Positions 5,415-48,798 of a stretch of 64,000 nucleotides of DNA are shown piece by piece. This stretch comes from an uncultured delta proteobacterium. GTDB taxonomy: Bacteria > Desulfobacterota > Binatia > UBA9968. The notes under the pieces are model-generated. The model saw only the letters and a list, made by a program, of their open reading frames with translations, searched no databases and was not told the origin of the DNA. The stretch is taken from positions 192,001 through 256,000 of the forward strand of contig CAVYTU010000013.1 of NCBI GenBank assembly GCA_963771465.1. Direction: 5' to 3'. Made by a program: the position numbers and the translations under genes. The stretch's first letter is position 1. Each line of letters opens with the position of its first letter.

Positions 5415-5430
5415 TGGCACGAGCGTTGCT
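5415..5430 (+). promoter_or_regulatory. sigma54 -24/-12 promoter
   Basis: TGGCAC-GAGCG-TTGCT, 70 bp upstream of the DUF326 gene. Confidence 0.8.
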
Positions 5431-5500
5431 CCACTCATTTCATACAGGGAAAATTAAAATCGCCGCCGTAAAACCGGCCGGGTAGGCAAGGAGGCATGCA

Positions 5501-5860
5501 ATGAATGAACAGCAACAGCCTATCGATCACGATATGGAAGTGTGCATTGAAAACTGTACCGAGTGTCATCGGATTTGCTTGGAGACGATGGAGTATTGTC
5601 TTGGCATGGGTGGCAAACACGCTGACGCAGCGCACATCGCCCTATTGGCCGATTGCGCGCAGATTTGTCAGACCAGCGCTGATTTCCTGATTCGCGACTC
5701 GCGATTGCACCAGCAAATCTGCGCTGTCTGCGCGGCGGTTTGCCGGCGTTGCGCCGATGACTGCATCGCTGTGGGCGGCGACGACGAGCAGATGCATCAG
5801 TGCGCCGAACAGTGCGTCATCTGTGAGGAGAGCTGCGCCGAGATGGCGGGACATAAGTAG
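5501..5860 (+). CDS. Cys-rich four-helix-bundle copper-binding protein (DUF326/Csp3-like)
   Basis: Repeated CxxxC/CxxC motifs (CIENCTECHRIC, CAQIC, CAVCAAVCRRCADDC, CAEQCVICEESC); AGGAGG RBS. Confidence 0.9.
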   Translation: MNEQQQPIDHDMEVCIENCTECHRICLETMEYCLGMGGKHADAAHIALLADCAQICQTSADFLIRDSRLHQQICAVCAAVCRRCADDCIAVGGDDEQMHQCAEQCVICEESCAEMAGHK

Positions 5861-5896
5861 TACTGAACGAAAGTAGAATTTGAACGAGGCCTAAGA

Positions 5897-7243
5897 ATGA
5901 AAATCAAACTAAAAAAAATCCGTGACCAAATTATCGTTATCACCGGCGCTTCGTCGGGCATCGGCTTGGCGACGGCGCGTATGGCGGCGCAACGGGGCGC
6001 CAAGCTCGTGTTGGCGGCACGCAGCCACGGAGCGCTGCGAACGCTGACCGACGAGATCAAACAAAAAGGCGGTCAGGCGATTCATTTCGAAGCGGACGTC
6101 GGCAATCCCGAAGACGTGTGCGACATCGCCCGCGCCGCCATCGAGCGCTACGGCGGTTTCGATACCTGGGTGAACAACGCCGGCATCGGTATGTACGGCA
6201 AACTCGAAGACGCCGATACCGAGGATATGCGCAAACTGTTCGAAACCAATTTCTGGGGATTGCTCTACGGCTCTCTCGAAGCCGTCAAACACTTGAAACT
6301 GCGCGGTGGCGCTTTGATCAACGTCGGCAGCACCGAATCCGAACGGGGTGTGCCCTTGCAAGGCGTCTATGCGGCCTCGAAACATGCCGTGAAAGGATTC
6401 ACCGATGTGCTGCGCATGGAACTCGAAGCCGACGGCGCGCCGGTATCGGTTACTTTGATCAAGCCCGCCGCCATCGACACGCCGTTTCCGTTGAACGCCA
6501 AAAATTATCTCGCCAGCGAGCCGCAGCATGTGGCGCCGGTCTACGCGCCCGAGGCGGTGGCCGAAGCGATCTTGCACTGTTGCGAAAATCCGGTGCGCGA
6601 GCTGTTTGTCGGCGCCGGCGGCAAAGGTTACGCCGCCATGGGTTACTATGCGCCGAGTCTGGCCGACAAAGTCGGAGAACAATACGTCATGGCCGGAACC
6701 CAGAGCGGCAAGCCCCGGCGTGAACGCGATGCTTTGGATCGGCCTTCAGAAAAACTCCAGGAGCGCGGCGATTACCCGGGTCATGTGGCGCAATCGAGCT
6801 TGTACACGAAAACTTCATTGCACCCGTGGTTATCCGCCGTGGCCGCGTTGGGCGCCGGCTGGCTGCTGCGCGCTTGGTGGCGCGCCGTCCGCTCGCAGCC
6901 GGCGAGTGACGGTCTCCATTGGACCAATCCTTATGAAAACAAATCGACAACTACACAAGCGAGGAGCGAGGCGATGATTGAAAAATCACAAATCCGCGAG
7001 CATATGCAGGTGCGCGGATCGGACGGCCAGCCAGTCGGCGAGGTCGACAAGCTCGAAGGCGATCGTATCAAGCTGACGAAAAATAGCGTCTCCGCTGAGG
7101 ATCAGCATCAGTATATCGACCTCGATGCGGTGGTGTCGGTGCAAGGCGACGTCTTATGTCTCGATAAAACCGCCGAGGCGGCCAAGCGCGAGATGCAAGC
7201 GCGACAAAGCGAGTCCGGCGCCACCGGGCCGGCTGACATTTAA
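5897..7243 (+). CDS. Short-chain dehydrogenase/reductase, reading in frame into a DUF2171 domain
   Basis: TGASSGIG, NNAG and YAASK motifs; no stop before the DUF2171 segment. Confidence 0.85.
   Translation: MKIKLKKIRDQIIVITGASSGIGLATARMAAQRGAKLVLAARSHGALRTLTDEIKQKGGQAIHFEADVGNPEDVCDIARAAIERYGGFDTWVNNAGIGMYGKLEDADTEDMRKLFETNFWGLLYGSLEAVKHLKLRGGALINVGSTESERGVPLQGVYAASKHAVKGFTDVLRMELEADGAPVSVTLIKPAAIDTPFPLNAKNYLASEPQHVAPVYAPEAVAEAILHCCENPVRELFVGAGGKGYAAMGYYAPSLADKVGEQYVMAGTQSGKPRRERDALDRPSEKLQERGDYPGHVAQSSLYTKTSLHPWLSAVAALGAGWLLRAWWRAVRSQPASDGLHWTNPYENKSTTTQARSEAMIEKSQIREHMQVRGSDGQPVGEVDKLEGDRIKLTKNSVSAEDQHQYIDLDAVVSVQGDVLCLDKTAEAAKREMQARQSESGATGPADI
6974..7243 (+). CDS. DUF2171 family protein (probable internal or independent start)
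   Basis: GAGGAG RBS then MIEKSQIREHMQVRGSDGQPVGEVDKLEGDRIKLTK...HQYIDLDAV. Confidence 0.7.
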   Translation: MIEKSQIREHMQVRGSDGQPVGEVDKLEGDRIKLTKNSVSAEDQHQYIDLDAVVSVQGDVLCLDKTAEAAKREMQARQSESGATGPADI

Positions 7244-7338
7244 TCCAGCGCGCCGATGGCGCGCGGATAATCATTTGGCTCTTCGCGTAGTCGAGTGGGT
7301 GAATTCTTGGTAACGACTCTTGTGATTGAGGTTTTCCA

Positions 7339-7462
7339 TCCCCCTTTGAAAAAAGGGGGACCGAGGGGGATTTGTTCGACGCCGAGGGACGAACTGTCAC
7401 CGAGCATCAAACCACGCGCAACGAAAAAATCCCTCCTAACCTCCCTTTGCCAAAGGGAGGAA
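7339..7462. repeat. Inverted pair of REP-like palindromic elements
   Basis: TCCCCCTTTGAAAAAAGGGGGACCGAGGGGGATTT (7339-7373) and an inverted copy AAATCCCTCCTAACCTCCCTTTGCCAAAGGGAGGAA (7427-7462), each with its own hairpin. Confidence 0.75.
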
Positions 7463-7513
7463 CCGTCCGCGATGATCCAATCATTTAACCAACGGCCGGA
7501 AAGGATGACAATT

Positions 7514-8869
7514 ATGAAAGCCTTATGTTGGTACGGCACGAAAGATGTGCGCGTGGAAACGGTGCCCGACCCGAAGATTATCACGCCGCGCGACGTGATC
7601 GTTAAGATCACCACGACGGCGATTTGCGGTTCGGATCTGCATCTTTACGGCGGCTACATTCCGACCATGGAAAAGGGCGACATTCTCGGCCATGAAAACA
7701 TGGGCGAAGTCGTCGAAACCGGCGCGGACGTGAAAAAATTAAAGGTCGGCGATCGCGTCGTCGTGCCGTTCACGATTGCTTGCGGCGAATGTTTCTTTTG
7801 CCGGAAGCAATTGTGGTCGCTGTGCGACAACACCAACCCCAATGCCGCCATGGCGGAAAAACTCTACAGCTATTCCCCCTCGGGGTTGTTCGGTTATTCG
7901 CACATGCTGGGCGGCTATGCCGGCGGCCAGGCGGAATATCTGCGTGTGCCGTTTGCCGACGTCGGCTGCTTAAAAATTCCCAACGGCATGGAAGACGAGA
8001 AAGTGCTATTCCTCTCGGACATTCTCCCCACCGGCTATATGGCCGCGGAGAATTGCGCCATCGAGCCGGGCGACACCGTGGCGGTGTGGGGCTGCGGTCC
8101 GGTGGGCCAGTTTGCGATCAGGAGCGCCTACCTGCTCGGCGCCCAACGGGTGATCGCCATTGACCGCATACCCGAGCGGCTCGACATGGCCGAGAAAAAA
8201 AGCGGCGCGGAAACCATCAACTACGAAACCGAAGAACTGTTCGACGTATTGAAAGAGAAAACCGACGGCCGCGGCCCGGATCGTTGTATCGACGCGGTGG
8301 GCATGGAAGCCCACGTGCCGGGAGCCATCGGCGTTTACGACACGGTCAAACAATCGATGATGCTGGAAACCGACCGGCCTCATGCGTTGCGCCAGGCGAT
8401 TACCTACTGCCGCAAAGGCGGCACGGTTTCGGTGCCCGGTGTTTACGGCGGCTTCATCGACAAATTCCCCATGGGCTCGGTGGTGAATAAAGCGCTGACG
8501 GTCAAGTCCGGGCAAACCCATATGCACCGCTACATGCAGCCGCTGCTCGAACGAATTCAAAACGGCGAAATCGATCCCTCGGATATTATTACCCATCGCT
8601 TGTCCCTCGACGAGGCGCCCCATGGTTATGAAATTTTCCGCGACAAGGCAGAAGGCTGCATCAAAGTCGTGTTGAAACCTGGACAATCGATCCCACGCGC
8701 GGAACATGCAAAACCGGCCAACGAGGCGGCCGCGACGCACGTGATGCATAATGTCTTGCCGCGCTTGAGCGCAGCGAAAACCGGATGGTGGTTCAGTCTG
8801 GATTTTTCGGAAAAGACTTGTTGCGTTGACCTGCAGAGCAGACATGACAACTTCAAAACTGCCTCATGA
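7514..8869 (+). CDS. Zinc-dependent alcohol dehydrogenase (formaldehyde dehydrogenase-like)
   Basis: ICGSDLH, GHE, CGECFFC...C zinc ligands and GCGPVG; start at MKALCW; about 60 aa of extra tail after CIKVVLKP. Confidence 0.9.
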
Positions 8870-8946
8870 ACTTCATAATAAACGTTACGCTTATGCTCGG
8901 TGTTTCTGTCTGTATCGGATTGATCTTCTGGCTTCTCAAGAAGTGA
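8866..8946 (+). CDS. Putative 26-aa single-pass membrane peptide
   Basis: [26 protein letters not shown]; ATGA overlap with the ADH stop; hydrophobic core followed by KK. Confidence 0.4.
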
Positions 8947-8984
8947 AACGCTAAAACCGACGTCGCTTGGCGCAAGGAGCAGCG

Positions 8985-9263
8985 ATGAAAAAATGTCCCC
9001 ATTGCGCCGAAGAAGTGCAAGACGAAGCGGTGAAGTGTCGTTATTGCGGTTCCAGTTTGCACGCCGGCGGCTCGCGCCTTAAGCAGTTGCATCGCTCGCG
9101 CCGGGACCGCAAGATTGCCGGCATCTGCGCCGGCCTTGCCGAATATTTCGACGTCGACGTTGTCATCATGCGTGTCGCCTGGGTGATTTTCGGGTTCGTC
9201 TCCGTCGGCGTCGCCGTGTTGCTTTACCTGGTGTTGATTTTCGTCATACCTAGCGAAGAATAA
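8985..9263 (+). CDS. Zinc-ribbon + PspC domain protein
   Basis: CPHCAE...KCRYCG followed by [24 protein letters not shown]...LYLVL; AAGGAG RBS. Confidence 0.9.
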
Positions 9264-9305: not shown

Positions 9306-9323
9306 TGTCCCGTAAATAGGACA
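9306..9323. promoter_or_regulatory. Palindromic TGT-N12-ACA putative regulator site upstream of kaiC
   Basis: TGTCCCG-TAAA-TAGGACA (CTGTCC/GGACAG inverted repeat). Confidence 0.4.
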
Positions 9324-9473: not shown

Positions 9474-11249
9474 ATGGCAAGGCGAACCAACCAATCTAAA
9501 GCAAGTATGCCGGCGCTCGCCAAGGCAACCACCGGTATCGCCGGGTTCGACGAAATAACCGGCGGCGGTTTGCCGCGCGGCCGGACTTCGCTTGTTGCCG
9601 GCAGCGCCGGCGCCGGTAAAACTCTTTTCGGCATGGAATTTATTTATCGTGGCGCGACGCAGTTCGGCGAGCCGGGCGTGTTCATGGCCTTCGAGGAGAA
9701 TGAAACCGAGTTGGCCGAGAACGTCGCCAGCCTCGGCTTTGATCTCGACGCGTCGATCAAACGCAATCAGATCATGGTCGATTTTGTCCGGGTCGAGCGC
9801 AGCGAGATCGAAGAGACCGGCGAATACGATCTCGAAGGTTTGTTTATCCGCCTGGGCCACGCCATCGAGAAAGTGAAAGCCAAGCGCGTCGTGCTCGACA
9901 CCCTCGAGGCGCTGTTCGCAGCCTTGCCTAATGAAGGCATCTTGCGCGCCGAGATGCGCCGATTGTTTCGCTGGCTCAAAGAGCGCGGCGTCACCGCCGT
10001 CATCACCGCCGAACGCGGCAGCGGCGCGCTCACGCGCCACGGTTTGGAAGAATACGTTTCGGACTGTGTAATTTTGCTCGACCATCGAGTGATCGAACAA
10101 ATGTCGACCCGGCGCATGCGCGTGGTGAAATATCGCGGCTCGGCGCACGGCACCAATGAATATCCGTTTTTGATCGACACCCAGGGACTATCGGTGCTGC
10201 CGGTCACGTCGCTCGGTTTAAATCACGATGCTCCCAACGAGCGCATCTCTTCTGGTATCGCCGCGCTCGATGCCATGCTCGACGGGCGAGGTTACTACCG
10301 GGGTGGCAGCGTGCTGGTATCGGGCACGCCCGGCGCGGGCAAGAGTTCGCTGTCGGCGCACTTCATCGCTGCCGCCTGCGCGCGCGGCGAACGCTGTATG
10401 TATTTTGCCTTCGAAGAGTCGGAGCGCCAGATCGTGCGCAACATGCGCTCAATCGGCATCGATCTCGGCCGTTGGCTAGAAAGCGGCAGGTTGCGCTTTC
10501 ACGCGGCCCGGCCGCAATTGCAGGGATTGGAGTCCCATCTGGCGCTTATGCTTAAGCAGATCAGCGATTTCGATCCGGCGGTGGTGGTGGTCGATCCGAT
10601 GACCAATCTCACCGAGGTCGGCAGCCCGGCGGAAGCCAAAACGATGCTCGTGCGCCTGGTGGATTTTCTCAAATCGCGGCGCATCACAACGCTGTTTGTG
10701 AGTCTGACCACGGACCAGCAGAATCCTGAGCAGACCGAAGTCGGCATCTCGTCTTTGATGGACACCTGGCTTTTGTTGCGTAATCTGGAAACCAATGGTG
10801 AACGCAATCGCGGCCTCTACGTTTTAAAATCGCGCGGCATGCCGCACTCCAATCAGATTCGCGAATTCACTTTGACCGATCACGGCGCGCAATTAAGAGA
10901 AATCTATACGGGAGTCGCGGGCGTCTTGACCGGCACCGCGCGCATCGCGCAGGAGGCGCGCGAGCGCGCTGAAATACTGGCGCGCCAACAGGAGAACGAG
11001 CGCAAACGGCGCGAACTCCAAGGCAAACGCCAAGCGATGGAAGCGCAAATCACGGCGCTGCGGGCCGCTTTTGCCGCTGAGTCCGCGGAGCTCGAGAAAG
11101 TTGTCAACGATACGCGGAGTGCTGATACTCTCATGACTGACACGCGCGCAACTCTCGCTAGTTTGCGCGGTGGCGACGCCAATTCGAAGTCCCGCAACAA
11201 GCGAAAAGGAGCCGATCGTGGCAGTAATAAAGCGAACTCGCGCAAATAG
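9474..11249 (+). CDS. kaiC: Circadian clock protein KaiC homolog (double ATPase) with C-terminal coiled coil
   Basis: Walker A GSAGAGKT and GTPGAGKS, catalytic FEE pairs, [23 protein letters not shown] (SS at the phosphosites), KSRGMPHS; probable start at ATG 9474 or 9507. Confidence 0.95.
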
Positions 11250-11547
11250 CGACGCCGAGGACCCGCCGGCTAAGCTCTGGCGGCTGCGCCTCTATGTTGC
11301 CGGGCAAAGCCCCAAGTGCTTGGCCGCCTTTGCCAATCTGAAAAAGATCTGCGAAGAGCATCTCGCAGGTGAGTATGAAATTGAAATAATCGATCTGCTC
11401 GAGCATCCGCACCTGGCGCGCGGCGACCAAATCCTGGCGATTCCAACCCTGGTGCGCAAACTTCCGGCACCCATGCGCAAAATCATCGGCGATCTGTCCA
11501 ATACCGAGCGCGTGCTCGTCGGATTGGATTTGCGGCCCGCGGGCTAG
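11218..11547 (+). CDS. kaiB: KaiB homolog 1
   Basis: [11 protein letters not shown]...ICEEHL...[38 protein letters not shown]; GTG start after AAGGAG, overlapping the kaiC end. Confidence 0.95.
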
Positions 11548-11597
11548 CGAGTTCGTTCAAGACGTAGGAAGAGATTCCAATAACCGGAAGGGATCAA

Positions 11598-11939
11598 ATG
11601 GCAAAACCAAAACGTCAAACCGCAAGGGAAAAGCCCGGCAGTCCAGACGGCCAAATTTACCTGTTCAAGCTGTGCATCAGCGGCATGACGCCGCGCTCGC
11701 GCCAAGCGGTGGTGAATATCAAGCGTATCTGCGAGGAATACCTGGCCGGCCAATACGAACTCGAGATCATCGATCTTTACCAGCAACCGGAGCTCGCCGC
11801 GCGCCACCAGATTATTGCCACGCCCACATTGCTACGGAACTTGCCGCAGCCGCAGCGACAAATGTTTGGCGATCTCACCGATACCAAAGCGACTTTACGC
11901 CGCCTTGGCATCGCGATCAAAGACGAGCTGCCCACATGA
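11598..11939 (+). CDS. kaiB: KaiB homolog 2 (divergent)
   Basis: [13 protein letters not shown]...ICEEYL...[29 protein letters not shown]...FGDLT. Confidence 0.9.
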
Positions 11940-13565
11940 CGGCGCCGCAGACCAGCCACGATGAGCTGCTCGAGGAGAACCAGGACCTCCAAGCGCGTCT
12001 CGAAGAAGCGGAAGAATTACTGCACGCCATCCGCTCCGGCAATCTCGACGCGCTGCTGCTGGATGGTCAACAGGGCCCTCAGGTCTACACTCTGCAAGGC
12101 GCCGATCAACCCTATCGCGTCTATGTGGAAACCATGAATGAAGGCGCGGTGACGCTGTCAAACGACGGCACGATACTTTACGCCAACCACCAATTCGCCG
12201 AGTTCGTTGGCGAAGGCCTTGAGCAAACCGTCGGTAAATCGTTTCGCGATTTTATTACCGGCGCCGACGACGAGGCCTTCGCCACGCTGGTGCGCGAGAT
12301 CGGCGGCGGCAGCCGCAGGGCTGAAATCACGCTAACCAATCACACCGGCGGGCTCCTTCCGGTCGGGCTTTCGGCGCGGCAAATGGAGCATGGCGGCGAC
12401 CGATTTATTTGTCTTGTGGTGACGGATTTGAGCGGCCAAAGGCTCCAGGAACAATTGCGCGAAGCCGACCGGCACAAGGATGAGTTCCTGGCGATGTTGG
12501 GTCATGAGCTGAGAAATCCCCTGGCGATTATGCACAATGTGCTGCAAGTTCTGCGCAAAAAATATGGGCGCGGATGGATCGGGCGAAATGCGCGGCATGA
12601 TTGAAGAGCAGGTGCGCCATATGGGGCGGCTGATCGACGATTTGCTCGACATATCGCGCGTCACCACGGGCAAGATTCGCCTGGAATCAACCCGTTTCGA
12701 CCTCGTCAAAGTTGTCGCCGACACCGTGCAAAGCTACCGCGACAGTCTTGAAGGCAACGGTTTGACGCTCTCGCTCGAATTGCCAAACCGTCCGTTATTC
12801 GTCCAAGGCGACAAAACCCGCATCGCCCAGGTGATCGGCAATTTGCTGCATAATGCCAGCAAGTTTACCGACAGCGGCGGCAAGGTGACGGTAGCGTTGA
12901 GCGCAGATCCTGGCGTCAATACCGCGTCGATCCGAGTGCGCGATACCGGTATCGGTGTAGACGGCGAAACTTTGCGGCGCGTGTTCGATACTTTCGCCCA
13001 GGCGGACCGCAGCATGGCGCGCAGCCGCGGCGGTCTTGGTTTGGGGTTGGCGCTCGTCAAAGGGCTGGTCGAGCTGCATGGCGGCACAGTGGCGGCGGCG
13101 AGCGACGGGCCGGGACAGGGTTCGGAATTCATCATTCACCTACCGATCGCAGGAGCGCTGTCGGAGGCACCGAGCGAAGAGACCGCAACGGTTGGCCCAA
13201 CGCGCTCTTTCCGTATTCTAGTAATTGAAGATAACCAGGCCGGCGCCTTGAGCATGCAGATGTTGTTGAAACATCTGGGCCATGTCGCGGAAGTCGCCTA
13301 TAACGGCATCGACGGTCTTGCTGCCGCGCAGCGTTTCAAGCCCGATGTGGTGCTCTGCGATATCGGCTTGCCGGGCCTCGACGGCTATCAAATCGCTCAG
13401 CGCTTGCGCGCCAACCAAGAGTTGCGCCAAAGTTTTCTCATCGCTCTCAGCGGCTACGGTCAGGAGGAGGATAAACAGCGCGCCCTGGGGGCAGGATTCG
13501 ATATCCACTGCATCAAACCGCTAAACATCGAACTGCTCGAAAAGTATCTGTCGGAACTGAGTTAA
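11936..13565 (+). CDS. Coiled-coil-PAS-HisKA-HATPase-REC hybrid histidine kinase, frameshift at ~12567
   Basis: ATGA overlap with kaiB2; PAS ([10 protein letters not shown]...YAN) and HELRNPL, then a second frame with [21 protein letters not shown] and REC. Confidence 0.9.
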
Positions 13566-14682: not shown

Positions 14683-14698
14683 TGGTCCGGAGATTGCA
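14683..14698 (+). promoter_or_regulatory. sigma54 -24/-12 promoter (relaxed match)
   Basis: TGGTCC-GGAGA-TTGCA, preceded by an A-tract region at 14589-14624. Confidence 0.6.
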
Positions 14699-17401: not shown

Positions 17402-17416
17402 GCAAACCGAATGCCA
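17402..17416 (-). promoter_or_regulatory. sigma54 -24/-12 promoter
   Basis: Minus strand TGGCAT-TCGGT-TTGC, pointing at the CBS/DUF6496 genes. Confidence 0.7.
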
Positions 17417-17751
17417 TGGTTCCGAGAGTAGAAGAGAATAAAAACTCATCATGTGCGTAGCGATCATCGCGTACGCGCAAGCCTGCAAGTATTAAGCACA
17501 TGCCGATGCGTGGAAATTTTCACGCGGTTCATTCACGTCTAGTGTAAGCGCCAAAATGATTTGACGGCCGTCCGATCTTCGCTTTCCTGTTCGCTCTGCT
17601 GTCCCCAAACTGGGTCGCCGAGGCCGAGCAAACTCTCAATTATAGTAATGGTGTTTCGACTAGATCTTCTTATCGCCTTCAGCGGCCAGACAACGGTGGT
17701 TTATCGATGCGAGGATCTTTTTGATTCGTCTAAATCGGGTGCGCAATCGCC

Positions 17752-17769
17752 TGTCCCATTTGTGATACA
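17752..17769. promoter_or_regulatory. Palindromic TGT-N12-ACA putative activator site
   Basis: TGTCCCA-TTTG-TGATACA; partial copies at 17600 and 17794. Confidence 0.45.
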
Positions 17770-17932: not shown

Positions 17933-24274
<6,342 letters not shown>

Positions 24275-24349
24275 CCGTTGTTCGAGGTTATCTGTTAACG
24301 TTCAAAGCGAAAACGTTGGATCTCGAACCTTGAAATCTTACGACCCACT

Positions 24350-34698: not shown

Positions 34699-34714
34699 TG
34701 GCATGTCTGTTGCT
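34699..34714 (+). promoter_or_regulatory. sigma54 -24/-12 promoter
   Basis: TGGCAT-GTCTG-TTGCT, 46 bp before ATG 34761. Confidence 0.8.
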
Positions 34715-39905: not shown

Positions 39906-39920
39906 GCAAAGTTTGTGCCG
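39906..39920 (-). promoter_or_regulatory. sigma54 -24/-12 promoter
   Basis: Minus strand CGGCAC-AAACT-TTGC. Confidence 0.75.
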
Positions 39921-39981
39921 TCGATTTCTGAGTTAAGCAGCTGTGAATATGTGCCGATTCCGGCACACAACCGGCTCGCCG

Positions 39982-39999
39982 GGTCGCAAAGTTGGGACA
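39982..39999. promoter_or_regulatory. Palindromic putative activator site between divergent sigma54 promoters
   Basis: GGTCGCA-AAGT-TGGGACA; adjacent perfect inverted repeat TGTGCCG-ATTC-CGGCACA at 39950-39967. Confidence 0.5.
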
Positions 40000-40102: not shown

Positions 40103-40117
40103 TGGCTTCGGTTTTGC
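40103..40117 (+). promoter_or_regulatory. sigma54 -24/-12 promoter (relaxed match)
   Basis: TGGCTT-CGGTT-TTGC, 40 bp before ATG 40158. Confidence 0.65.
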
Positions 40118-40157: not shown

Positions 40158-41168
40158 ATGACTGAGAAAAACAGCCGCTGGGGTATTGTGCTCGCGGGGG
40201 GTGAAGGAAATCGGGTGCGGGACTTTCTCTCGGCACTGTGCGGCGGGCGAGGCATCAAACAATATTGCTCGGTCTTAGGCAGGCGCTCTTTGCTGCAAAT
40301 GACCGTGGATCGCGTCCAGCAGCTGATTCCACGTGAGCGCATTCTTATCATTGTCGACAAACGCCACCGGCCGGAAGCAACCGCGCAGCTCGCCGGCTGG
40401 CCGGAGGAGAACATCATCTATCAACCCGCTAATCGCGAGACCGCCCCCGGCATCCTGCTGCCGCTGGCACACGTGAGCCATCGCTGCCCGGACGCGACGG
40501 TGGCGGTTTTTCCGTCCGACCATTTTATCGCCAACGAGCGCGGCTTTATGACCCATGTGGCGAAGGCTTTCGAGGAAACCGAAGTGTTTCCGCAAAGTGC
40601 GATTTTGCTGGGTATGACGCCGGATCGCGTTGAAGATGGCTATGGCTGGATTAGCAGCCGGGAAGAGCGCGCCGGTAAAGCCAGCCGAGCGGTGCGCGGC
40701 TTTTGGGAAAAACCTGCACTGCCCCATGCTGAAGAGTTGATGCAGCAGGGCGCTCTGTGGAACACTTTTGTGTTTGCCGCTCGCGCGTCAGCAATGTGGG
40801 AGATGACGCGCCAAACCGTGCCGAATCTTTACGGACTATTCACCGGCGTGCGAGCGATGCTGGGTACGACGCATGCGCAGAAATATATCGACCAAACCTA
40901 TGAGCGCCTGTGCGCGGTCAACTTCAGCTCGGCGATTCTCGCCCGCTGCGCGGCTCGCCTTCGAGTCCTACCGGTGCCGGACATTGGCTGGAGCGACTGG
41001 GGTAGCGCCGACAGAATCCTCGACTCGGCGATGCGCATGGGACGTGTGGGCGAGCTAGCCGCTCGTCTGGAGAATCAATACGTCGACGACCCGTCGATCA
41101 TAAATCTGCTGTCGCGTTACCAATCGTCTTCGAAGCAGGTGGCCTACGAAAATTCGGCTATAGCATAA
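40158..41168 (+). CDS. Mannose-1-phosphate guanylyltransferase-like sugar-phosphate nucleotidyltransferase (no cupin domain)
   Basis: IVLAGGEG.R, KQY, QPANRETAP, FPSDH, YGWI, FWEKP, WSDWGS. Confidence 0.85.
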   Translation: MTEKNSRWGIVLAGGEGNRVRDFLSALCGGRGIKQYCSVLGRRSLLQMTVDRVQQLIPRERILIIVDKRHRPEATAQLAGWPEENIIYQPANRETAPGILLPLAHVSHRCPDATVAVFPSDHFIANERGFMTHVAKAFEETEVFPQSAILLGMTPDRVEDGYGWISSREERAGKASRAVRGFWEKPALPHAEELMQQGALWNTFVFAARASAMWEMTRQTVPNLYGLFTGVRAMLGTTHAQKYIDQTYERLCAVNFSSAILARCAARLRVLPVPDIGWSDWGSADRILDSAMRMGRVGELAARLENQYVDDPSIINLLSRYQSSSKQVAYENSAIA

Positions 41169-41967: not shown

Positions 41968-42366
41968 TCACTGCGGCAGCGCCACGTTCGCCATCGAGAC
42001 GAGACGGCAGTTTTTCCAATGTTGCAGCGCGCAGCGCAATGAATTGGCTTCGATGGCGAGATGCTGGCAAACGTTTTCGAAGGAAAATGGAGAGTCATCA
42101 TCCCTTTGCAATATCCACTCTTCGGCAGCGAAAAAGAGCTTCATGCCGGCGCGGCTGCGAGCAGCAAAATGATGTTGAAAGCAGTAGACCGCGTCATTCA
42201 AGAGCGCGAACAGAAGTTTTTCTTCTGGTTCGTCGTAGGTCTTGCGGTGACTAAAGTCGAGATAAGTGAGCGGCGCCAGAGTGTCGTCGATAAACAGCGG
42301 CAGTAAAGGTATGAGTTTGTCGCTCCATGCAGCCGATTCTAACGATGAAATGTCCGTGTTTGCCAT
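41968..42366 (-). CDS. Hypothetical protein (paralog of 33768-34124)
   Basis: GGAGGT RBS; PEEKLLFALLNDAVYCFQ...AEEWI...PFSFENVCQHLAIEANSLR. Confidence 0.8.
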   Translation of the reverse strand: MANTDISSLESAAWSDKLIPLLPLFIDDTLAPLTYLDFSHRKTYDEPEEKLLFALLNDAVYCFQHHFAARSRAGMKLFFAAEEWILQRDDDSPFSFENVCQHLAIEANSLRCALQHWKNCRLVSMANVALPQ

Positions 42367-42419: not shown

Positions 42420-42435
42420 AGCAAACAGAATGCCA
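42420..42435 (-). promoter_or_regulatory. sigma54 -24/-12 promoter
   Basis: Minus strand TGGCAT-TCTGT-TTGCT. Confidence 0.8.
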
Positions 42436-42597
42436 CCAAGGCAAATAAGCAATCAAAGAAACTTTATCAATGACGCCGGCTGCGCTCGGCTCCGCAATGT
42501 CCCACAATCGAGATCGTGGTCTCTAATCAATTGCGAAATTGGGACGTTGTCCAAAAATAAAGCGGTGAATCACCCTACACAGTCGTAAATTTCGTGA

Positions 42598-42613
42598 TGG
42601 TCCGCGGTTTGCT
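42598..42613 (+). promoter_or_regulatory. sigma54 -24/-12 promoter (relaxed match)
   Basis: TGGTCC-GCGGT-TTGCT. Confidence 0.6.
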
Positions 42614-42784: not shown

Positions 42785-43114
42785 ATGGAACGAAGAACAG
42801 TACGCAAGCCGACTGAGACTGTCAAAAAAAAATCTCCCAAGGCAGCGTCAAAATTAAAGGCAGTACCGCTGGCCTATTTCGCGCCGGAAGCGAATACGGT
42901 GGCGGCAGCCGGGGATTTCAATAATTGGGATGTTCAAGCGAACATGCTCGAAAGAAATGGTGACGGTTGGTGGAAGACCGATCTCAAGCTCACCCCGGGA
43001 CGTTATCTTTACCGCTTTGTGATCAATGGCGAACAGTGGAGTGAAGATCCGGAGAACCCGAATAAAGTTCCTAATGAATTCGCCTCGTACAATTCCATCC
43101 TGGAGGTCCCGTAG
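42785..43114 (+). CDS. Stand-alone glycogen-binding (CBM48/AMPK-beta-like) domain protein
   Basis: APEANTVAAAGDFNNW...GWWKTDLKLTPGRYLYRFVINGEQWSEDPENP...NSIL. Confidence 0.9.
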   Translation: MERRTVRKPTETVKKKSPKAASKLKAVPLAYFAPEANTVAAAGDFNNWDVQANMLERNGDGWWKTDLKLTPGRYLYRFVINGEQWSEDPENPNKVPNEFASYNSILEVP

Positions 43115-43256: not shown

Positions 43257-43272
43257 CGGCACATTGTTTGCT
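43257..43272 (+). promoter_or_regulatory. sigma54 -24/-12 promoter
   Basis: CGGCAC-ATTGT-TTGCT; TGTCTCG-ATAG-CAAAACA upstream at 43167-43184. Confidence 0.7.
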
Positions 43273-43284
43273 GAATTTAGCTGT

Positions 43285-43476
43285 ATGAGATTTGTATGTC
43301 GCCATTGTGAAGAACTTTGCTACGGCGAGGCGTTCCGGGTGACCAGCGTCGACAACGATATAGTTTTGCTCGACATGATCGTCTGTCAACACTGTGCGCT
43401 GGTGGCGCGCGGCTTAGAATTGCCAACGCAGAAAATCGACTTGCCATCTGGAAACGACGCGCAAGTCAATTTTTAA
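43285..43476 (+). CDS. Small CxxC...CxxC zinc-ribbon-like protein
   Basis: MRFVCRHCEELCYGEAFRVTS...LDMIVCQHCALVAR. Confidence 0.65.
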   Translation: MRFVCRHCEELCYGEAFRVTSVDNDIVLLDMIVCQHCALVARGLELPTQKIDLPSGNDAQVNF

Positions 43477-43764
43477 AGCGTCGCCAAAATTCATTCCCCA
43501 GTAGCACTCGCCGGAGTTCGTAGGGTGGTCGCACGGCTGCCTTCCTCCCGGCGCAGCGAATAACCGCGAAAACGCTGACGGTTTTTATTTGCCTACTAGT
43601 ATTCGAACCACTCCTTAGTTGTGCTCTAGAAGCCCAACGCTCCGAGGGGATTTTCCCAGATAATTTTACCCACTCTCGTAGGGAAAATTCCTGCAAGAAG
43701 GGACTGGAGCGATCTACGCGCAAAAAAATTGCCGTAAAATTGCTAGCGATCCGGCGTAACCACC

Positions 43765-43779
43765 TGGCACGTCCTTTGC
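43765..43779 (+). promoter_or_regulatory. sigma54 -24/-12 promoter
   Basis: TGGCAC-GTCCT-TTGC, 48 bp before ATG 43828. Confidence 0.8.
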
Positions 43780-43827: not shown

Positions 43828-44163
43828 ATGAAAGATCGATGCGCGATAGGTGTACGGATTTCCTTGCTACCGCAACATTGGTTGCGGCCCTATGAAATTG
43901 GCGTCGTGATTGACCAACAACCGCGAGCATTAAAGAAATGGCTGGTGCAGTTCGAGAATTCCTATCCCGGCGGGGGTATCGACGGAGACAAAATGTGGTG
44001 TGATGAAAGCGATTTTGCCGAAGTGATTCGTCCTCGTAGTGAAGCCACGCGGACCGCGCACATACCGGGGACGTTTCCCCTCGCCGATGCACCGAAGTTT
44101 TCGGGCATAGAAAACGGGGCCGGAGACAGATCGAACGGCAACGGTAGCGTTGTGTTGAGCTGA
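43828..44163 (+). CDS. Hypothetical protein (beta-rich, possibly SH3-like N-terminal half)
   Basis: GGAGGTGA RBS; IGVRISL...IGVVID...WLVQF...MWCDESDF. Confidence 0.65.
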   Translation: MKDRCAIGVRISLLPQHWLRPYEIGVVIDQQPRALKKWLVQFENSYPGGGIDGDKMWCDESDFAEVIRPRSEATRTAHIPGTFPLADAPKFSGIENGAGDRSNGNGSVVLS

Positions 44164-44348: not shown

Positions 44349-44789
44349 ATGCGACCGACAAAATCAACCTCGTGGTTTACTCGCTTCGCGAAAACGACGT
44401 CTCGACTCGTCGGTCGCCCGGCCGCGTTTATCTCGGCAGCGGGACTCGTTGTGGTGTGGGGTTTGACCGGTCCGATGTTCGGCTATAGCGAAGGCTGGCA
44501 ACTGGTGATCAATACCGGCACGACGATCGTTACGTTTCTGATGGTGTTCTTGATTCAGAATACTCAGAACCGCGACTCAGAGGCGATTCAGATCAAACTG
44601 GATGAATTAATTCGGGTCAGCAAGGGGGCGCAAAATGCCCTGCTGAACTTAGAAGAGCTCGAGGAAGAGGAACTGGATTCCATTCGTGAAAAATACGTCG
44701 AGGTGGCGGAGAATGCGCGCGCCGATTTGCGCTCTCAGCGAGGTCAAACAGCGAGCCCGGATGGCCAGCGGAGAAGGCGCGTTCGATAA
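44349..44789 (+). CDS. Low-affinity iron permease (Fet4-like) family protein
   Basis: WQLVINTGTTIVTFLMVFLIQNTQNRD...KLDELI signature. Confidence 0.9.
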   Translation: MRPTKSTSWFTRFAKTTSRLVGRPAAFISAAGLVVVWGLTGPMFGYSEGWQLVINTGTTIVTFLMVFLIQNTQNRDSEAIQIKLDELIRVSKGAQNALLNLEELEEEELDSIREKYVEVAENARADLRSQRGQTASPDGQRRRRVR

Positions 44790-44792: not shown

Positions 44793-45440
44793 ATGAGGAC
44801 GGCAGCTATGTCAATCGTGGTTTTCAGCTTGGCGCAGGCCGTGGCGCCGCAAGTGGGGTCGCGCTCCAAAGAGAGCGAGCCGCCAGCGACCGCTAAAAAA
44901 CAGGTCGATGCCGAGACCGCGCAACGGCTTTATCGAATTGCCACGCCACTGCTGCGCGCGATGGAGCATTCGCTCAAGCCGCAACAAGTTAGCGTCGGCG
45001 TTATTGCCGATGCCGCCATCAACATCGCCAACGGCGGCGGCGGCAAATTGTTTGTCACCACCGGTTTATTGGAGCGGGCGAATGACGACCAGTTGCGCGG
45101 GCTGATGGTACACGAAATCGCCCACGAGGATCTCGGCCATGTAACCAAGCTCAAGATATCGGCAACAGGCGCTAACATGGTCTTGCTCGAACATTTGGCG
45201 GCGAAGCACACGGCGCTGACATTAATTGACGGGCCGATGATCACTGCAAGCTTCAGTGTGTCCGAGGAACTCGCGGCCGATCGCCAAAGTGTCGCGATCC
45301 TGGAGCGCGCAGGGTATCCCAAATCAGTTGTCACCGAAGCGCTGACCTGGATCTCGAAAATTTCGCCAAGCCACGGCGGGTTTATTTCTACTCATCCCAA
45401 TATCAGCGAGCGCATCAAAAACCTGAAGGCGTCGCCCTAG
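44793..45440 (+). CDS. M48 family metallopeptidase
   Basis: INIANGGGG, VHEIAH, ELAAD, STHPN; close paralog of 41261-41920. Confidence 0.85.
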   Translation: MRTAAMSIVVFSLAQAVAPQVGSRSKESEPPATAKKQVDAETAQRLYRIATPLLRAMEHSLKPQQVSVGVIADAAINIANGGGGKLFVTTGLLERANDDQLRGLMVHEIAHEDLGHVTKLKISATGANMVLLEHLAAKHTALTLIDGPMITASFSVSEELAADRQSVAILERAGYPKSVVTEALTWISKISPSHGGFISTHPNISERIKNLKASP

Positions 45441-45689: not shown

Positions 45690-46102
45690 CCGGGGTGTGA
45701 GATCAGTATGCAAAGGGTCTGCTCGGTAAAAAACTCGAAGCATTTAGGCAAGGAGAGAATATGGCCGATCTAGCTGCCTGGTCTGTTACTGTGCCGATAT
45801 CTTTACTCGCTTTGCTTTGGGTCTTTGACGTACTCTAAGGCCCGCTTGCTCGGCGCGTGATTACAGTTGTCCGAGCGTTCAAAACCCTTCGGTAAGCCAA
45901 TCAGGAAAGCGAACTCGCGATATCACAGGTCTTAAATTACCGACTTTTACCTAGCAACCCGAACATTCCATCTCTTCAAGATATCGCAAGAGCGATTCTT
46001 TCTGTTAGCTAAAACTCGTAGGAAATTACCTTCGTAAAGGAAATTGCATACCGTCCCTGCGTCAAAACTCTCGTGAATTCGCGCTGTCCCTTGGCTCGCT
46101 CG

Positions 46103-46117
46103 TGGCACATGAATTGC
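46103..46117 (+). promoter_or_regulatory. sigma54 -24/-12 promoter
   Basis: TGGCAC-ATGAA-TTGC, 34 bp before ATG 46152. Confidence 0.8.
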
Positions 46118-46151
46118 GCTTCATATTTTTCGCCCGAGAAGGAGTTGGCGA

Positions 46152-46328
46152 ATGGAACTACCAGTCGATGCGCAGGATGTTGAGACCACTATCAATGAAC
46201 TTATTTTGATGTTGCGAGAAAACGCCAGCGACAGCCAGACCCATCAGCGCGAGACGCAAATTTTAGTGGCCTACGCGCTCTCAGGGCTTTTTGGCGGAGA
46301 AGGACTTTGTTCGCGATGCTGGCATTGA
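46152..46328 (+). CDS. Small hypothetical protein (58 aa, not in ORF track)
   Basis: AAGGAG RBS plus sigma54 motif; MELPVDAQDVETTINELILMLRENASDSQTHQRETQILVAYALSGLFGGEGLCSRCWH*. Confidence 0.6.
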   Translation: MELPVDAQDVETTINELILMLRENASDSQTHQRETQILVAYALSGLFGGEGLCSRCWH

Positions 46329-46506
46329 GCATCCTCAACGCGGACGATAAATAAAATAAAATGAAACCGAAGCTCCCAACTTCTAAGGATTCGCTAGACG
46401 ATCGTTGTGAGGAAAAAAAGCCTTCTGAACGGTTTTTCCCTTCAACAATTTTATCTGTGTTCGGTCTTTTCGCTTTGGATTCACGCATTTTTGCGCAGAT
46501 ATGCGC

Positions 46507-46521
46507 TGGCATCAGGATTGC
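46507..46521 (+). promoter_or_regulatory. sigma54 -24/-12 promoter
   Basis: TGGCAT-CAGGA-TTGC, 45 bp before ATG 46567. Confidence 0.8.
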
Positions 46522-46566
46522 GGATACAAAGATTCAGCTTAGTCTAGTAAAGGAGGGTTCTAAGGT

Positions 46567-46791
46567 ATGAAGACATTTTTAGTTTTGATGTTGGCAGCAG
46601 CGTTGACTCAATCGGGTTGCGCATTTCTCGGTGGTGCGGCTACCGGTGTGTTGGCTACCGGGGCAGGATATGAGATCCAGGCGAAGCGGCAAATGGATAA
46701 GCTGGATGACGATCTCAAGAGCGAGAGAATTTCGCGGCGCGAGTATGAGCAGCGCAAACAGCAGATCGAGAACGGTTCGATCATTTACTAA
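46567..46791 (+). CDS. Small lipoprotein
   Basis: AGGAGG upstream; LTQSGC lipobox, Gly-rich helix, charged tail. Confidence 0.75.
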   Translation: MKTFLVLMLAAALTQSGCAFLGGAATGVLATGAGYEIQAKRQMDKLDDDLKSERISRREYEQRKQQIENGSIIY

Positions 46792-46852
46792 GGACCGCTA
46801 AACGCGGCTGGTAAACGGAATGAAACGATCAAAGCAGAAAGGAGGTTATACT

Positions 46853-47020
46853 ATGTTAAGCTGGGCACTGACCTTTTTGATTATCGGTCTGATCGCTGCG
46901 CTTCTGGGCGTAGCGGGAGTTGCCGCCGTGGCAACACAGGTCGGCTGGATCTTATTTGTCGTTGGCCTCATCCTGCTAATCGTACATTCAGTCCGTGGAC
47001 GGGTGCCACCTGTCGCGTAA
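46853..47020 (+). CDS. DUF1328 (UPF0391/YtjA-like) small membrane protein
   Basis: AGGAGG RBS; MLSWALTFLIIGLIAALLG...ILFVVGLIL. Confidence 0.85.
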   Translation: MLSWALTFLIIGLIAALLGVAGVAAVATQVGWILFVVGLILLIVHSVRGRVPPVA

Positions 47021-47226
47021 GTGAGCTAGTGGATTCGAACGATGTTGTCAAAACATCGTTCGAATCCTGAGGACAAAGATTCGCTGGAATCGATCCAACG
47101 ATTTAATCAAGTTCACCCCACGATTGTTGTGATAGTCTCGCGCAGCGAGACCGGTAATGATGTTTTGCGGTTGATTCTTTCGATCGCCACGAAAGACGAC
47201 TACAGAACATCCATCGCGCCCTCGTT

Positions 47227-47584
47227 CTATAGTTGCATCGCTCGCGAATTGCTTGCGTCGCCGGTCAATATCATTTCCAGGACTTGGAAATCGAGCGGCT
47301 TTATTAAATGATAATTAAATCCGGCTTGGCGGGATTCTTCGCGGTCTTCATCGCTTCCCCAACCGGTTTGCGCGATCAAGATGATGTTCTTGAAGGCGTT
47401 CATTTTTCGCCGCTTCCTGCTCGGTATAGCCAAAGAGCCGTTCCGCTCCGCCATTCCAGCTGGTGATAATGCCGTTGAGATCTTTGCTAATAATAGCGTC
47501 GTCGGAAGACTCGACAATCGCTGCGAGTCTGGCACCGTCCCCGAGGAAAAAGTTACTGATGTTCGCTAGATCGATCGGCATCAC
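47227..47584 (-). pseudogene. Internally deleted PAS...REC hybrid kinase remnant
   Basis: PAS start [34 protein letters not shown] abuts the receiver C-terminus [28 protein letters not shown] in another frame. Confidence 0.75.
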
Positions 47585-47852
47585 GCCATTCCTTCAGTTG
47601 CAGAATCCACCGAGAGCCTCAAGAACTTACCGGACTACTGAGCGGTTCTTCTTGGAGACAAAAAACTAGGCTACTTCCCAGGTCAAATCAAGGGATATTG
47701 GCGCGATGTTAAACCGTCTCGCAGAATCAAGAAAAACGGAAACTGAAAAAAAAACAGCGAGGAACCCGCCGGCGCTTCAGCGCAAAATACCAGGCTTTCC
47801 TGGGATAGTGGCGAGGGTTACGCGGTAAGGAGAAGCCTATTTACGAAGAAAG

Positions 47853-48599
47853 TTACTTCCGCCGTTGCGGCTTAAATGTAGAGCCGCGTACGCCCACACT
47901 ATCGGATCGCGCAGAGGGTGAATCCGTTGATCTTAGTATCGATTGATCGTAGCGCGCCAACAGATCGGCGGGATGGCGATAAACTTCAATACATCCGGCG
48001 TGGCGTAATCGCTCTTCGGTCCAGCCGCCGCTAAGCAATCCGATTATACGCATATTTGCGTTGGTGGAGGCTTCGGCGTCATACGGTGTGTCGCCGACTG
48101 TAACGATTTCGCCGAGGGCGATATCGCCGAGCTTGCTGAGCGCAGCTTCGAAAATATCGGGATGCGGCTTGGATTGTTTGACGTCGGCGGACGAAGTGTC
48201 GGCTTCGATGAGATCCTCGATCCGGGCGATTTTTTTATACTCATCCAATTCATCTTTTTTGGCCGACGAAGCCAGTGCGATTTTTCGCCCATCGTCTTGG
48301 ATTCGGCGCAACAGCTCGCGCACTTTGGGGAAGGGTTTAATTTGTGGCAAGTATTCCGTCCGAAACAGATTACCGCGAAATTCCTCTAGCTCCCGGCCGA
48401 AACGACCGAGCTCTTCAGTGGAGAAAAACACTGGCAGAAGCTGATCGGCGCCTTTGCCGATCTGCCGGCGGATCGCTTCGAATGAAACGTCCCTGTCAAA
48501 CTTCGCGAAGGCAACCTGCCATGCCTTAGCATGGAGATCGACCGAATCGACTAACGTGCCGTCAACGTCAAAGATGACTGCTTCAAGCGCACTCTGCAT
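47853..48599 (-). CDS. HAD family hydrolase
   Basis: FDVDGTLVDS, ALASS, SKPHPDIF, VGDTPYD. Confidence 0.9.
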   Translation of the reverse strand: MQSALEAVIFDVDGTLVDSVDLHAKAWQVAFAKFDRDVSFEAIRRQIGKGADQLLPVFFSTEELGRFGRELEEFRGNLFRTEYLPQIKPFPKVRELLRRIQDDGRKIALASSAKKDELDEYKKIARIEDLIEADTSSADVKQSKPHPDIFEAALSKLGDIALGEIVTVGDTPYDAEASTNANMRIIGLLSGGWTEERLRHAGCIEVYRHPADLLARYDQSILRSTDSPSARSDSVGVRGSTFKPQRRK

Positions 48600-48744
48600 G
48601 GCCGCATTTACACTCGTCCGCGCTACCAGCGGGCCCAATATTGGCGCAAAAAGTGCTGCAAAAGGTTTCGCCCCCTTTGTCGACACCCTTGCCGTCTCGG
48701 ACTATGCAATCACAATCATCGTGGGCGCAATTCATCTCTGCCAT
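48583..48744 (-). CDS. Bacterial metallothionein-like protein (53 aa, not in ORF track)
   Basis: AAAGGAGG RBS; MAEMNCAHDDCDCIVRDGKGVDKGGETFCSTFCANIGPAGSADECKCGHAECA* (8 Cys, 2 His; BmtA/SmtA-like spacing). Confidence 0.85.
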   Translation of the reverse strand: MAEMNCAHDDCDCIVRDGKGVDKGGETFCSTFCANIGPAGSADECKCGHAECA

Positions 48745-48782
48745 AGGAGATCCCTCCTTTTAGCGACTTGACGAAGGAGAGT

Positions 48783-48798
48783 AGCAACCCCAGTGCCA
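48783..48798 (-). promoter_or_regulatory. sigma54 -24/-12 promoter
   Basis: Minus strand TGGCAC-TGGGG-TTGCT, 38 bp before the metallothionein ATG. Confidence 0.85.

Follow-up and report, generated by a model that had tools for sequence, protein, structure and literature searches.

The 64,000-nucleotide stretch of DNA analyzed here (the window) covers positions 192,001 to 256,000 of contig C13 in the 6.9-Mb, 19-contig genome (G000) of an uncultured delta proteobacterium of the class Binatia. Its left part encodes an assortment of histidine kinases, a KaiC protein with two KaiB proteins, and a series of short operons for CBS, Fet4-like, DUF1328, metallothionein, and other mostly small proteins, many of them preceded by sequences of the -24/-12 type, which sigma-54 (RpoN), an alternative sigma factor, uses. 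After 49.5 kb, as stated in the first-pass annotation of this DNA, come genes of aromatic-type catabolism (Rieske oxygenases, UbiD, a Mo-hydroxylase, and a DHDPS-family enzyme). That annotation also proposed that a general stress program runs through sigma-54, a reading that is supported by the density of the motif, the presence of rpoN, conservation in related genomes, the nature of the cargo, and the identification of a suitable activator. As judged from these sequence features, the strict sites are probably real sigma-54 promoters that make up a lineage-specific general-stress regulon, with most promoters of the surrounding genomic island under a single activator.

The strict pattern YGGCAY-N5-TTGC is found 11 times in the window, compared to 1.22 occurrences expected from 100 shuffles, none of which reached 11. 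All these sites had been listed before (those on the minus strand by their higher coordinate), and all are located outside real coding sequence; they score from 12.8 to 23.6 bits (null tail of ≤2.3e-5) with a 23-position weight matrix (PWM) trained on oriented intergenic sites across the whole genome. As previously claimed, the sites aim at translation starts: a start codon with a Shine-Dalgarno-like sequence is found 13 to 184 nt downstream of each motif, although at 31914+ the first open reading frame downstream is doubtful and the next gene start is about 720 nt away. The relaxed pattern TGG-N8-TTGC is much less specific, with 30 occurrences in the window versus 11.4 expected. The four relaxed sites that had been suggested as further promoters are all present in the sequence and differ in quality. 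Site 40103+ is credible because of its PWM score (null, 2e-5) and the upstream palindromes that it has in common with 39920-, and it is the only one of the four that stands on the PWM score alone. Sites 42598+ and 14683+ are borderline, at the noise level of a window background in which ~13 chance hits of ≥9.8 bits are expected, and 30095+ scores at chance level. Beyond 48798, the window contains no strict site, again as first described.

On the scale of the whole genome, there are 182 strict sites, 123 of which are outside called genes. Per Mb, there are 116 copies in intergenic DNA and 10 in coding DNA, an 11.5-fold difference in density, which is what the first-pass annotation required of a promoter; these values are based on a simple in-frame hexamer caller that yields 6664 genes and leaves 15% of the genome non-coding (84.7% coding). 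For the narrower pattern TGGCAY-N5-TTGC, 105 of the 119 copies are intergenic and 78 are within 300 nt of a start on the same strand. The core profile from 89 oriented sites carries only ~0 to 0.5 bits in its flanks, almost excludes A after TTGC, and tolerates single mismatches chiefly at positions 1, 4 (TGGTAY), and 12. Its GG and GC dinucleotides are exactly 10 nt apart, as required of a -24/-12 promoter. Since the flanks are nearly free of information, the sites are not copies of a repeat. The genome has a single rpoN gene, another expectation of the earlier annotation (C14:367,857-369,332; TIGR02395 score of 449.5 bits against a curated cutoff of 277), along with 35 matches to the sigma-54 activator domain (Pfam ID PF00158), 22 of which score 170 to 254 bits in full-length frames, the rest being split fragments and weak AAA+ hits. 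Outside the islands described below, the motif precedes genes for a NIR_SIR-Rieske nitrite/sulfite reductase, an NMT1_2 nitrate/sulfonate-type binding protein, a porin, an SLT-LysM protein, and signaling proteins. Those for the reductase and the NMT1_2 protein are nitrogen-assimilation genes, which are classic sigma-54 targets and thus provide an internal positive control for the motif.

Promoter identity was assigned here by consensus, and the motif might in principle be the binding site of some other protein or a dispersed intergenic repeat that resembles a -24/-12 element. The exact GG-N10-GC geometry with a canonical core and unconstrained flanks, the strand orientation towards starts 13 to 300 nt away, the co-occurrence of rpoN with GAFTGA-containing activators, the placement before nitrogen-assimilation genes, and an activator-type palindrome at the classic upstream distance make this scarcely credible. 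A different possibility is that many sites bind the sigma-54 holoenzyme yet stay largely silent or serve as roadblocks. Closed complexes of sigma-54 need no activator for their stability, and the sites that lack the palindrome have no activator assigned to them. We still regard silent sites as very unlikely to be the rule here: nearly all sites are intergenic and correctly oriented, the opposite of an intragenic pattern, they are kept upstream of orthologs, and, as weak evidence, contigs from RNA libraries cover the downstream genes. Many non-productive sigma-54 sites are reported for Escherichia coli (PMC4591121).

The motif is unevenly spread over the genome. Of 263 intergenic PWM hits with ≥12.5 bits (a mean of 3.8 per 100 kb), 31 are packed into 92.5 kb at C13:148,856-241,354, a region referred to here as the C13 island. 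The extent of ~44 kb originally given for the cluster was therefore too small: it starts 43 kb before the window and ends at window position 49,354, and the window covers only the right half of the ~92-kb island. A second island, at C15:482-582 kb (from 482,458; loci L005 to L009), has 28 hits per 100 kb, and the two 100-kb islands together account for 59 of the 263 hits.

None of the PF00158 matches is in the window, in agreement with the earlier suggestion that the activator is encoded elsewhere. The best candidate is found 37 kb before the window, in the left half of the C13 island (C13:153,626-154,981). It is a 451-residue protein of the REC-Sigma54_activat-AAA_lid-HTH_8 architecture with the GESGVGKE and GAFTGA motifs and the sequence context of the receiver aspartate. 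This domain order is that of the NtrC-family response-regulator enhancer-binding proteins, and the presence of the receiver domain means that the activator is, in principle, kinase-fed. All NCBIfam equivalog models for named activators (NtrC, AtoC, ZraR, GlrR, NtrX, and others) score below their cutoffs, the best being AtoC with 456 bits against 714. The activator gene has a sigma-54 site of its own (TGGTAC-N5-TTGC, 34 nt before the start), with two tandem 18-bp palindromes, YGTCCC-N6-GRGACR, in its upstream region.

A comparison of the upstream regions of island promoters with those of promoters elsewhere is where the sequence TGTCCCA first stood out. The 18-bp palindrome TGTCCC-N6-GGGACA is located ~60 to 130 nt upstream of 18 of the 28 C13-island promoters. 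With up to 2 mismatches, this consensus has 36 intergenic copies in the genome, 17 of them no farther than 300 nt from a sigma-54-like site (typically, 35 to 116 nt). In an unbiased k-mer test of 181 promoter upstream regions against 3000 control intergenic windows, GTCCCAA was the top 7-mer (18 versus 55, p = 6e-8) and TGTCCCAA was the top 8-mer. A palindrome matrix, built from 17 seed sites that include C13-island promoters, places 17 of 255 promoters above the 99th control percentile and 52 above the 95th, namely, 18 of the 28 C13-island promoters, 3 of the 24 from the C15 island, and 31 of the 203 outside both. The position of the palindrome is also constrained, with 43 of the 52 high scorers having it at -130 to -60, compared to 100 of the 203 low scorers. 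In a scan of the window that covered coding and non-coding DNA alike, all six hits above the 99th percentile (9306, 17600, 17752, 31792, 39950, and 39982) fell in promoter regions, and weaker hits accompany the sites 5415, 42435/42598, and 43257.

The C15 island encodes its own REC-AAA+ activator (C15:498,005-499,462), which is 39% identical to the one from C13; HTH_8 was not detected in it. Given this low identity and the rarity of the palindrome at C15-island promoters, a single activator for both islands was rejected, and the C15 island is probably a separate, parallel branch.

The link between activator, palindrome, and promoter extends beyond this genome. Orthologs of the activator are found at 21 loci with 62 to 93% protein identity, after which the next-best matches fall to 45%; the respective records carry the titles "Candidatus Binatia," "delta proteobacterium," Thermodesulfobacteriota, and a few other names that resemble binning errors. 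Of the 20 loci that include upstream sequence, 15 have a sigma-54 site no more than 300 nt before the activator gene, in line with the conservation that the first-pass annotation had set as a test. In these loci, the motif is also found before genes for CsbD (where the GGGCAY variant is kept, too), Dps, a DUF1942-like protein, C13_152251, YflT, the CBS protein, and the 74-residue lipoprotein of the window. At these foreign loci, none of which were used in training, 22 of 54 sigma-54 sites have a palindrome above the 99th-percentile threshold against 10 of 630 windows drawn at random from these loci; the 95th percentile gives 33 of 54 and 34 of 630, respectively. Near-perfect palindromes are located 71 to 100 nt upstream of the activator promoter in L015 to L018, L020, L024, L025, L028, and L030. 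Of all the data, this test most strongly indicates that promoter, palindrome, and activator are one conserved unit.

In Aminicenantes- and Acidobacteria-labeled genomes (L050, L054, L058, L062, and ~25 more loci), an exact sigma-54 site is found at a fixed position, ~180 nt past the end of an activator gene whose product is 42 to 44% identical; this suggests a conserved pairing of activator and target that has no relation to the system described here.

CsbD was found in 39 of the 100 other genomes sampled from the class, and the best locus was examined in each of 29. A sense-oriented site (≤1 mismatch, ≤400 nt upstream) is present in 12 of these genomes, which come from 6 families, and is exact in 5, versus 2 antisense sites, none of them exact. 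In an outgroup phylum, that of a Nitrospirota-labeled genome (81 genomes, one phylum sampled), none of the 15 evaluable CsbD loci has a site. The link thus appears to be lineage specific and not a property of CsbD leaders. For the promoters of the window itself, conservation is patchier: in three genomes, 5 of 10 copies of the 74-residue lipoprotein gene have a sigma-54-like site 59 to 82 nt upstream. The Csp3-like gene was considered for promoter footprinting and discarded, as it turned up in just 2 of the 101 genomes of the class, G000 included.

Many of the genes behind the promoters belong to families known from stress responses. The cargo named in the first-pass annotation (a CBS protein, SDR-DUF2171, a zinc-dependent alcohol dehydrogenase [Zn-ADH], a Fet4-like permease, DUF1328, and a Csp3-like protein) is borne out by domain searches, and the Csp3-like protein, a Cys-rich four-helix protein, matches the solved CSP3 chains 6zif (3e-14), 5fig, and 5arm. 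The characterization of the cargo as stress related is strengthened by the left half of the C13 island, where the same motif precedes textbook general-stress families: a CsbD-YtxH-DUF948 operon, Dps/ferritin, two BON proteins, and DUF1003, as well as three YflT-domain proteins (one fused to CBS), two BrkB/YihY proteins, an AI-2E-B12 fusion, and a GT4 glycosyltransferase. The Pfam names of YflT and CsbD themselves state membership in the general-stress group. The C15 island encodes DUF4168, AAA-BON, MlaC, SRPBCC, CBS, YflT-like, and PRC-barrel plus CsbD proteins and CsbD with ElaB-like neighbors. A flagellar function for that island, suggested by FliA at its edge, was rejected, as its genes are of the stress and signaling types. 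When all genomic copies found by Pfam are counted, a sigma-54-like site (≤1 mismatch, intergenic, within 2.5 kb, and with no opposite-strand gene in between) is present upstream of 4 of 7 CsbD, 7 of 13 BON, 2 of 2 YtxH, and 4 of 4 YflT genes. The total of 17 of 26 compares with 568 of the 6664 called genes (8.5%), but copies in one operon are not independent and a binomial p-value would overstate the case.

An alternative that accepts the promoters and denies the program has to be weighed against these data. The palindrome is missing from 10 of the 28 island promoters and, in the matrix scan, from 5 of the 11 strict window sites (34699, 43765, 46103, 46507, and 48798); ~22 activators are available; the metallothionein, Csp3-like, and Fet4-like proteins of the window could be served by a metal-sensing activator of their own; genomes of the same genus show no synteny in the window block; and a second weak upstream motif accompanies four of the palindrome-less sites. 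The sites could accordingly belong to separate activator-operon pairs (for metals, the envelope, carbon storage, and so on) that lie side by side by chance in an accessory region of variable content, with the term "general stress regulon" reading too much into gene names. What makes this unlikely, though a serious contender, is that a single palindrome in a single position range marks 18 of the 28 island promoters, that the pairing of palindrome and promoter recurs in other genomes, and that stress families are enriched behind the motif throughout the genome. CsbD, YtxH, YflT, Dps, BON, CBS, and DUF1328-type families are those that define the SigB, RpoS, and EcfG general-stress regulons elsewhere. 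The five palindrome-less promoters of the window probably use another of the ~22 activators.

Several further observations count against a single sigma-54 stress program. There is no histidine kinase gene beside the activator gene. The enrichment of the palindrome within the genome is partly circular, as the seeds include island sites, and only the foreign-locus test is independent. Nine of the 26 stress-family copies have no upstream site, nor do 17 of the 29 CsbD loci from the class within 400 nt. Synteny of the window block is lacking even within the genus: in five genomes of the same family, the segment from 39 to 49 kb is represented only by short coding fragments, and 4 of the 11 homologous fragments have an exact site in the 3-kb locus, only one of them just upstream on the gene strand. 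The hexamer caller is crude: it misses some small genes, and the intergenic fractions and distances based on it are approximate. The estimated contamination of the genome bin is 6.29%. Finally, the genome encodes, in addition to RpoD, RpoH, and FliA, a second RpoD-like factor (C17:914,918) and ~12 extracytoplasmic function (ECF)-type factors; the last two could also serve stress, and sigma-54 need not be the sole route. No recognized RpoS, SigB, or EcfG system is seen: neither an RpoS or SigB equivalog nor NepR turned up in the genome, and the second RpoD-like factor scores below both the RpoS and the SigB cutoffs.

The promoter motif with its intergenic bias and orientation, rpoN, the activator, the cargo, the palindrome and its position, and the conservation in relatives are all seen in the sequence; from these we infer activator binding, its phosphorylation, the inducing signals, and an outcome in general stress resistance or dormancy. 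In the regulon proposed here, a kinase would phosphorylate the receiver domain of the orphan activator, which would then assemble on TGTCCC-N6-GGGACA sites ~60 to 130 nt upstream of the -24 element and spend ATP to open the closed sigma-54 complexes at ~15 to 40 promoters. From its own sigma-54 promoter with the tandem palindromes, the activator would boost its own synthesis, creating positive feedback. The products would be protective small proteins, Dps, metal buffers, proteases, and transporters. More tentatively, sigma-54 and one self-amplifying orphan activator might hold in Binatia the master role in stress and dormancy that belongs to RpoS, SigB, or EcfG elsewhere, as an ATP-gated switch that stays off until a phosphorelay, perhaps fed by poly-HAMP and HWE kinases or KaiBC, turns it on; we consider this broader proposal possible but rather less probable than not.

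General stress responses are textbook examples of sigma-70-family control, in which such factors compete for RNA polymerase. SigB of Bacillus, RpoS of E. coli, and EcfG/PhyR of Alphaproteobacteria control the same kind of cargo through many small operons, each with the same alternative promoter. The island has general-stress and stationary-phase cargo spread over many short operons, each with a predicted sigma-54 promoter of its own, but its promoters are of the -24/-12 type, which need an ATP-driven activator, in place of sigma-70-family control, and there is no partner-switching or proteolysis module. With NtrC, ZraR, and AtoC of E. coli, the island activator shares the REC-AAA+-HTH_8 architecture, the GAFTGA motif, palindromes ~80 to 120 nt from the promoter, and autoregulation; it differs in having no adjacent kinase, a much larger predicted regulon, and different cargo. 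The PspF phage-shock system, RtcR, and NorR are sigma-54-dependent stress responses, too, and the window cargo includes a PspC-domain protein; however, each of these regulators serves a single operon and one insult, whereas the present set comprises many families and ~30 promoters (no search was aimed at pspA or pspF). In Myxococcus xanthus, sigma-54 activators of the Nla group, some of them autoregulated, drive entry into a resistant state (starvation and sporulation), albeit in another lineage and in a multicellular developmental setting. The Rrp2-RpoN-RpoS cascade of Borrelia burgdorferi (PMC2940757 and PMC4014564) likewise puts a response-regulator enhancer-binding protein and sigma-54 on top of a global adaptive program. 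There, sigma-54 drives rpoS and RpoS drives the effectors, whereas here the sigma-54 promoters are directly before dozens of effector operons and the activator has a DNA-binding HTH and a defined palindrome. In the accessible parts of the literature searched, sigma-54 is associated with nitrogen, motility, envelope, and single-operon stress systems and with the Borrelia cascade, and no paper, including PMC12316311, PMC3162934, and PMC2725144, was found to tie it to CsbD/YtxH/Dps/BON cargo or to Binatia; regulon supplements, which were outside the scope of that search, could hold such genes. The mechanics proposed here are thus ordinary for sigma-54 and its activators, while the cargo, the scale, and the defined and conserved operator are unusual.

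If correct, this arrangement implies a different logic of the stress response, with no basal leak, an obligatory ATP-using activator, and positive feedback through the activator promoter. Binatia are abundant in soils and uncultured, and the compact, conserved code of promoter plus palindrome would offer a direct handle on the physiological state of these bacteria when metatranscriptomes are read. The regulon that it defines, with one activator, one 18-bp site, and ~15 to 40 promoters, is open to testing and could be reconstructed in E. coli with no need to grow the source organism.

The coordinates of the window features are listed in Table 1. Its candidate sensor module includes a 2113-residue hybrid histidine kinase with 11 to 12 HAMP repeats and GAF, HisKA, HATPase, and three REC domains, and the signaling genes of the window further include a Cache-GAF-PAS kinase. 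The stretch 1480-4991 (-) encodes a CheB methylesterase fused to a CheR methyltransferase, with a PAS domain, next to a triple-PAS histidine kinase. By inference, this dense signaling block, with its kinases, KaiC and KaiB proteins, and CheB-CheR fusion, could supply the input of the activator.

Table 1. Predicted sigma-54 promoters, palindrome-like sites, and other features of the window
Position	Strand	Feature	Evidence and neighbors
5306-5323		Weak palindrome copy, 11.9 bits	Above 95th percentile; 109 nt upstream of 5415 site
5415-5429	+	Sigma-54 promoter, TGGCAC-N5-TTGC, 18.3 bits	Pattern, PWM; ATG with ribosome-binding site 71 nt downstream
5501-9263	+	Likely operon, judging by strand and spacing	Csp3-like (5501-5860), SDR-DUF2171 (5897-7243), Zn-ADH (7514-8869), Zn-ribbon-PspC (8985-9263)
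14683-14697	+	Relaxed site, 9.1 bits, noise level	PWM; doubtful
17402-17416	-	Sigma-54 promoter, 17.9 bits	Before CBS-pair protein (17217-16780)
17600-17617, 17752-17769		Two palindrome-like sites, 15.3 and 13.3 bits	Matrix; upstream of 17416-
17933-27456	+	Candidate sensor module	2113-residue hybrid kinase, REC-HisKA_2/HWE kinase, REC-PAS-HisKA-HATPase-REC kinase
30095-30109	+	Relaxed site, 4.3 bits, null ~1e-3	PWM; rejected
31792-31809		Palindrome-like site, 15.8 bits	122 nt upstream of 31914 site
31914-31928	+	Sigma-54 promoter, 23.6 bits, top score of the window	Next solid gene, AI-2E family transporter (32648-33724)
34699-34713	+	Sigma-54 promoter, 21.6 bits	ATG at 34776; calcineurin-like phosphoesterase (to 35501), then 35517-36305; palindrome not found
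39906-39920	-	Sigma-54 promoter, CGGCAC variant, 12.8 bits	53-residue membrane protein (39874-39713)
39950-39967, 39982-39999		Two palindromes, 17.5 and 18.4 bits	Matrix; common to divergent 39920- and 40103+
40103-40117	+	Relaxed sigma-54 site, TGGCTT, 14.1 bits	Credible; NTP-transferase (40158-41168)
42421-42435	-	Sigma-54 promoter, 19.8 bits	132-residue Binatota-specific protein (42366-41968), then M48 peptidase (42019-41261)
42498-42546		Two weaker palindrome-like sites, 12.7 and 11.3 bits	Between 42435- and 42598+
42598-42612	+	Relaxed site, TGGTCC, 10.4 bits	Borderline; CBM48 protein (42785-43114)
43257-43271	+	Sigma-54 promoter, CGGCAC, 16.3 bits	63-residue CxxC protein from ATG 43285 (region 43257-43476); ATG 13 nt past TTGC, mRNA possibly leaderless or nearly so
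43765-43779	+	Sigma-54 promoter, 18.8 bits	111-residue protein (43828-44163), Fet4-like permease (44349-44789), M48 peptidase (44808-45440); no palindrome
46103-46117	+	Sigma-54 promoter, 19.9 bits	58-residue protein (46152-46328); no palindrome
46507-46521	+	Sigma-54 promoter, 19.1 bits	74-residue lipoprotein (46567-46791), DUF1328 (46820-47020), 89-residue protein (47042-47311)
48784-48798	-	Sigma-54 promoter, 16.9 bits	Prokaryotic metallothionein (48744-48583), then HAD hydrolase (to 47853)

Parts of the segment from 39 to 49 kb are present in 16 metatranscriptome runs (best share, 0.43), and contigs from RNA libraries in 4 runs of 3 studies match it with 95 to 100% identity. Some of them begin 14 to 60 nt downstream of predicted starts, and others cross promoters, e.g., 45992-46861 and 48433-48919. 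Being assembled contigs, they cannot show transcription starts, strand, or level and may reflect DNA carry-over; this limits the case for the stress program, and they were not used as evidence for it.

Some additional sequences with one or both of the motifs deserve mention. A near-perfect palindrome (9306-9323, 16.6 bits), with the N6 spacer seen at the activator's promoter, is located ~200 nt before the KaiC-KaiB-KaiB-PAS/HisKA-HATPase-REC cluster (9507-13565). No sigma-54 site is seen between the two, and the activator may act at this cluster in another mode. The sequence GGGCAT-N5-TTGC at 33628-33642 (+; 13.1 bits), within the end of the AI-2E transporter gene and ~125 nt before the gene at 33768, may be an internal promoter. 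A 1.35-kb segment at a contig end (C18:192,900-194,250) that includes a sigma-54 site and a palindrome is 96% identical to C2:1-1,390, either as a duplication or as an assembly or strain overlap.

The second weak upstream motif, which is GGGAAAATTCC-like, is found at 43600-43760, 45980-46100, 46400-46500, and 48830-48900, before the palindrome-less sites 43765, 46103, 46507, and 48798. Its form AAATTCCT is present in 11 of the 181 promoter regions and 34 of the 3000 controls (p = 3e-5), a difference that is not significant after correction for 8-mers and is a lead only. Another 8-mer, CATGCGCG, which was enriched in the cluster-only comparison, has 8 distinct copies in 10 promoter regions; it is not a top k-mer genome-wide and was dismissed as noise.

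The 132-residue protein encoded at 41968-42366 (-) and again at 33768-34124 (+) has no Pfam match and represents a Binatota-specific family. It was considered as a regulon marker or a sigma-54 partner and rejected, as only 3 of its 16 copies in G000 are behind a site. The family is found in 100 of the 101 sampled genomes of the class, with 2 to 18 copies in each (a tally that includes the unpublished genome G087).

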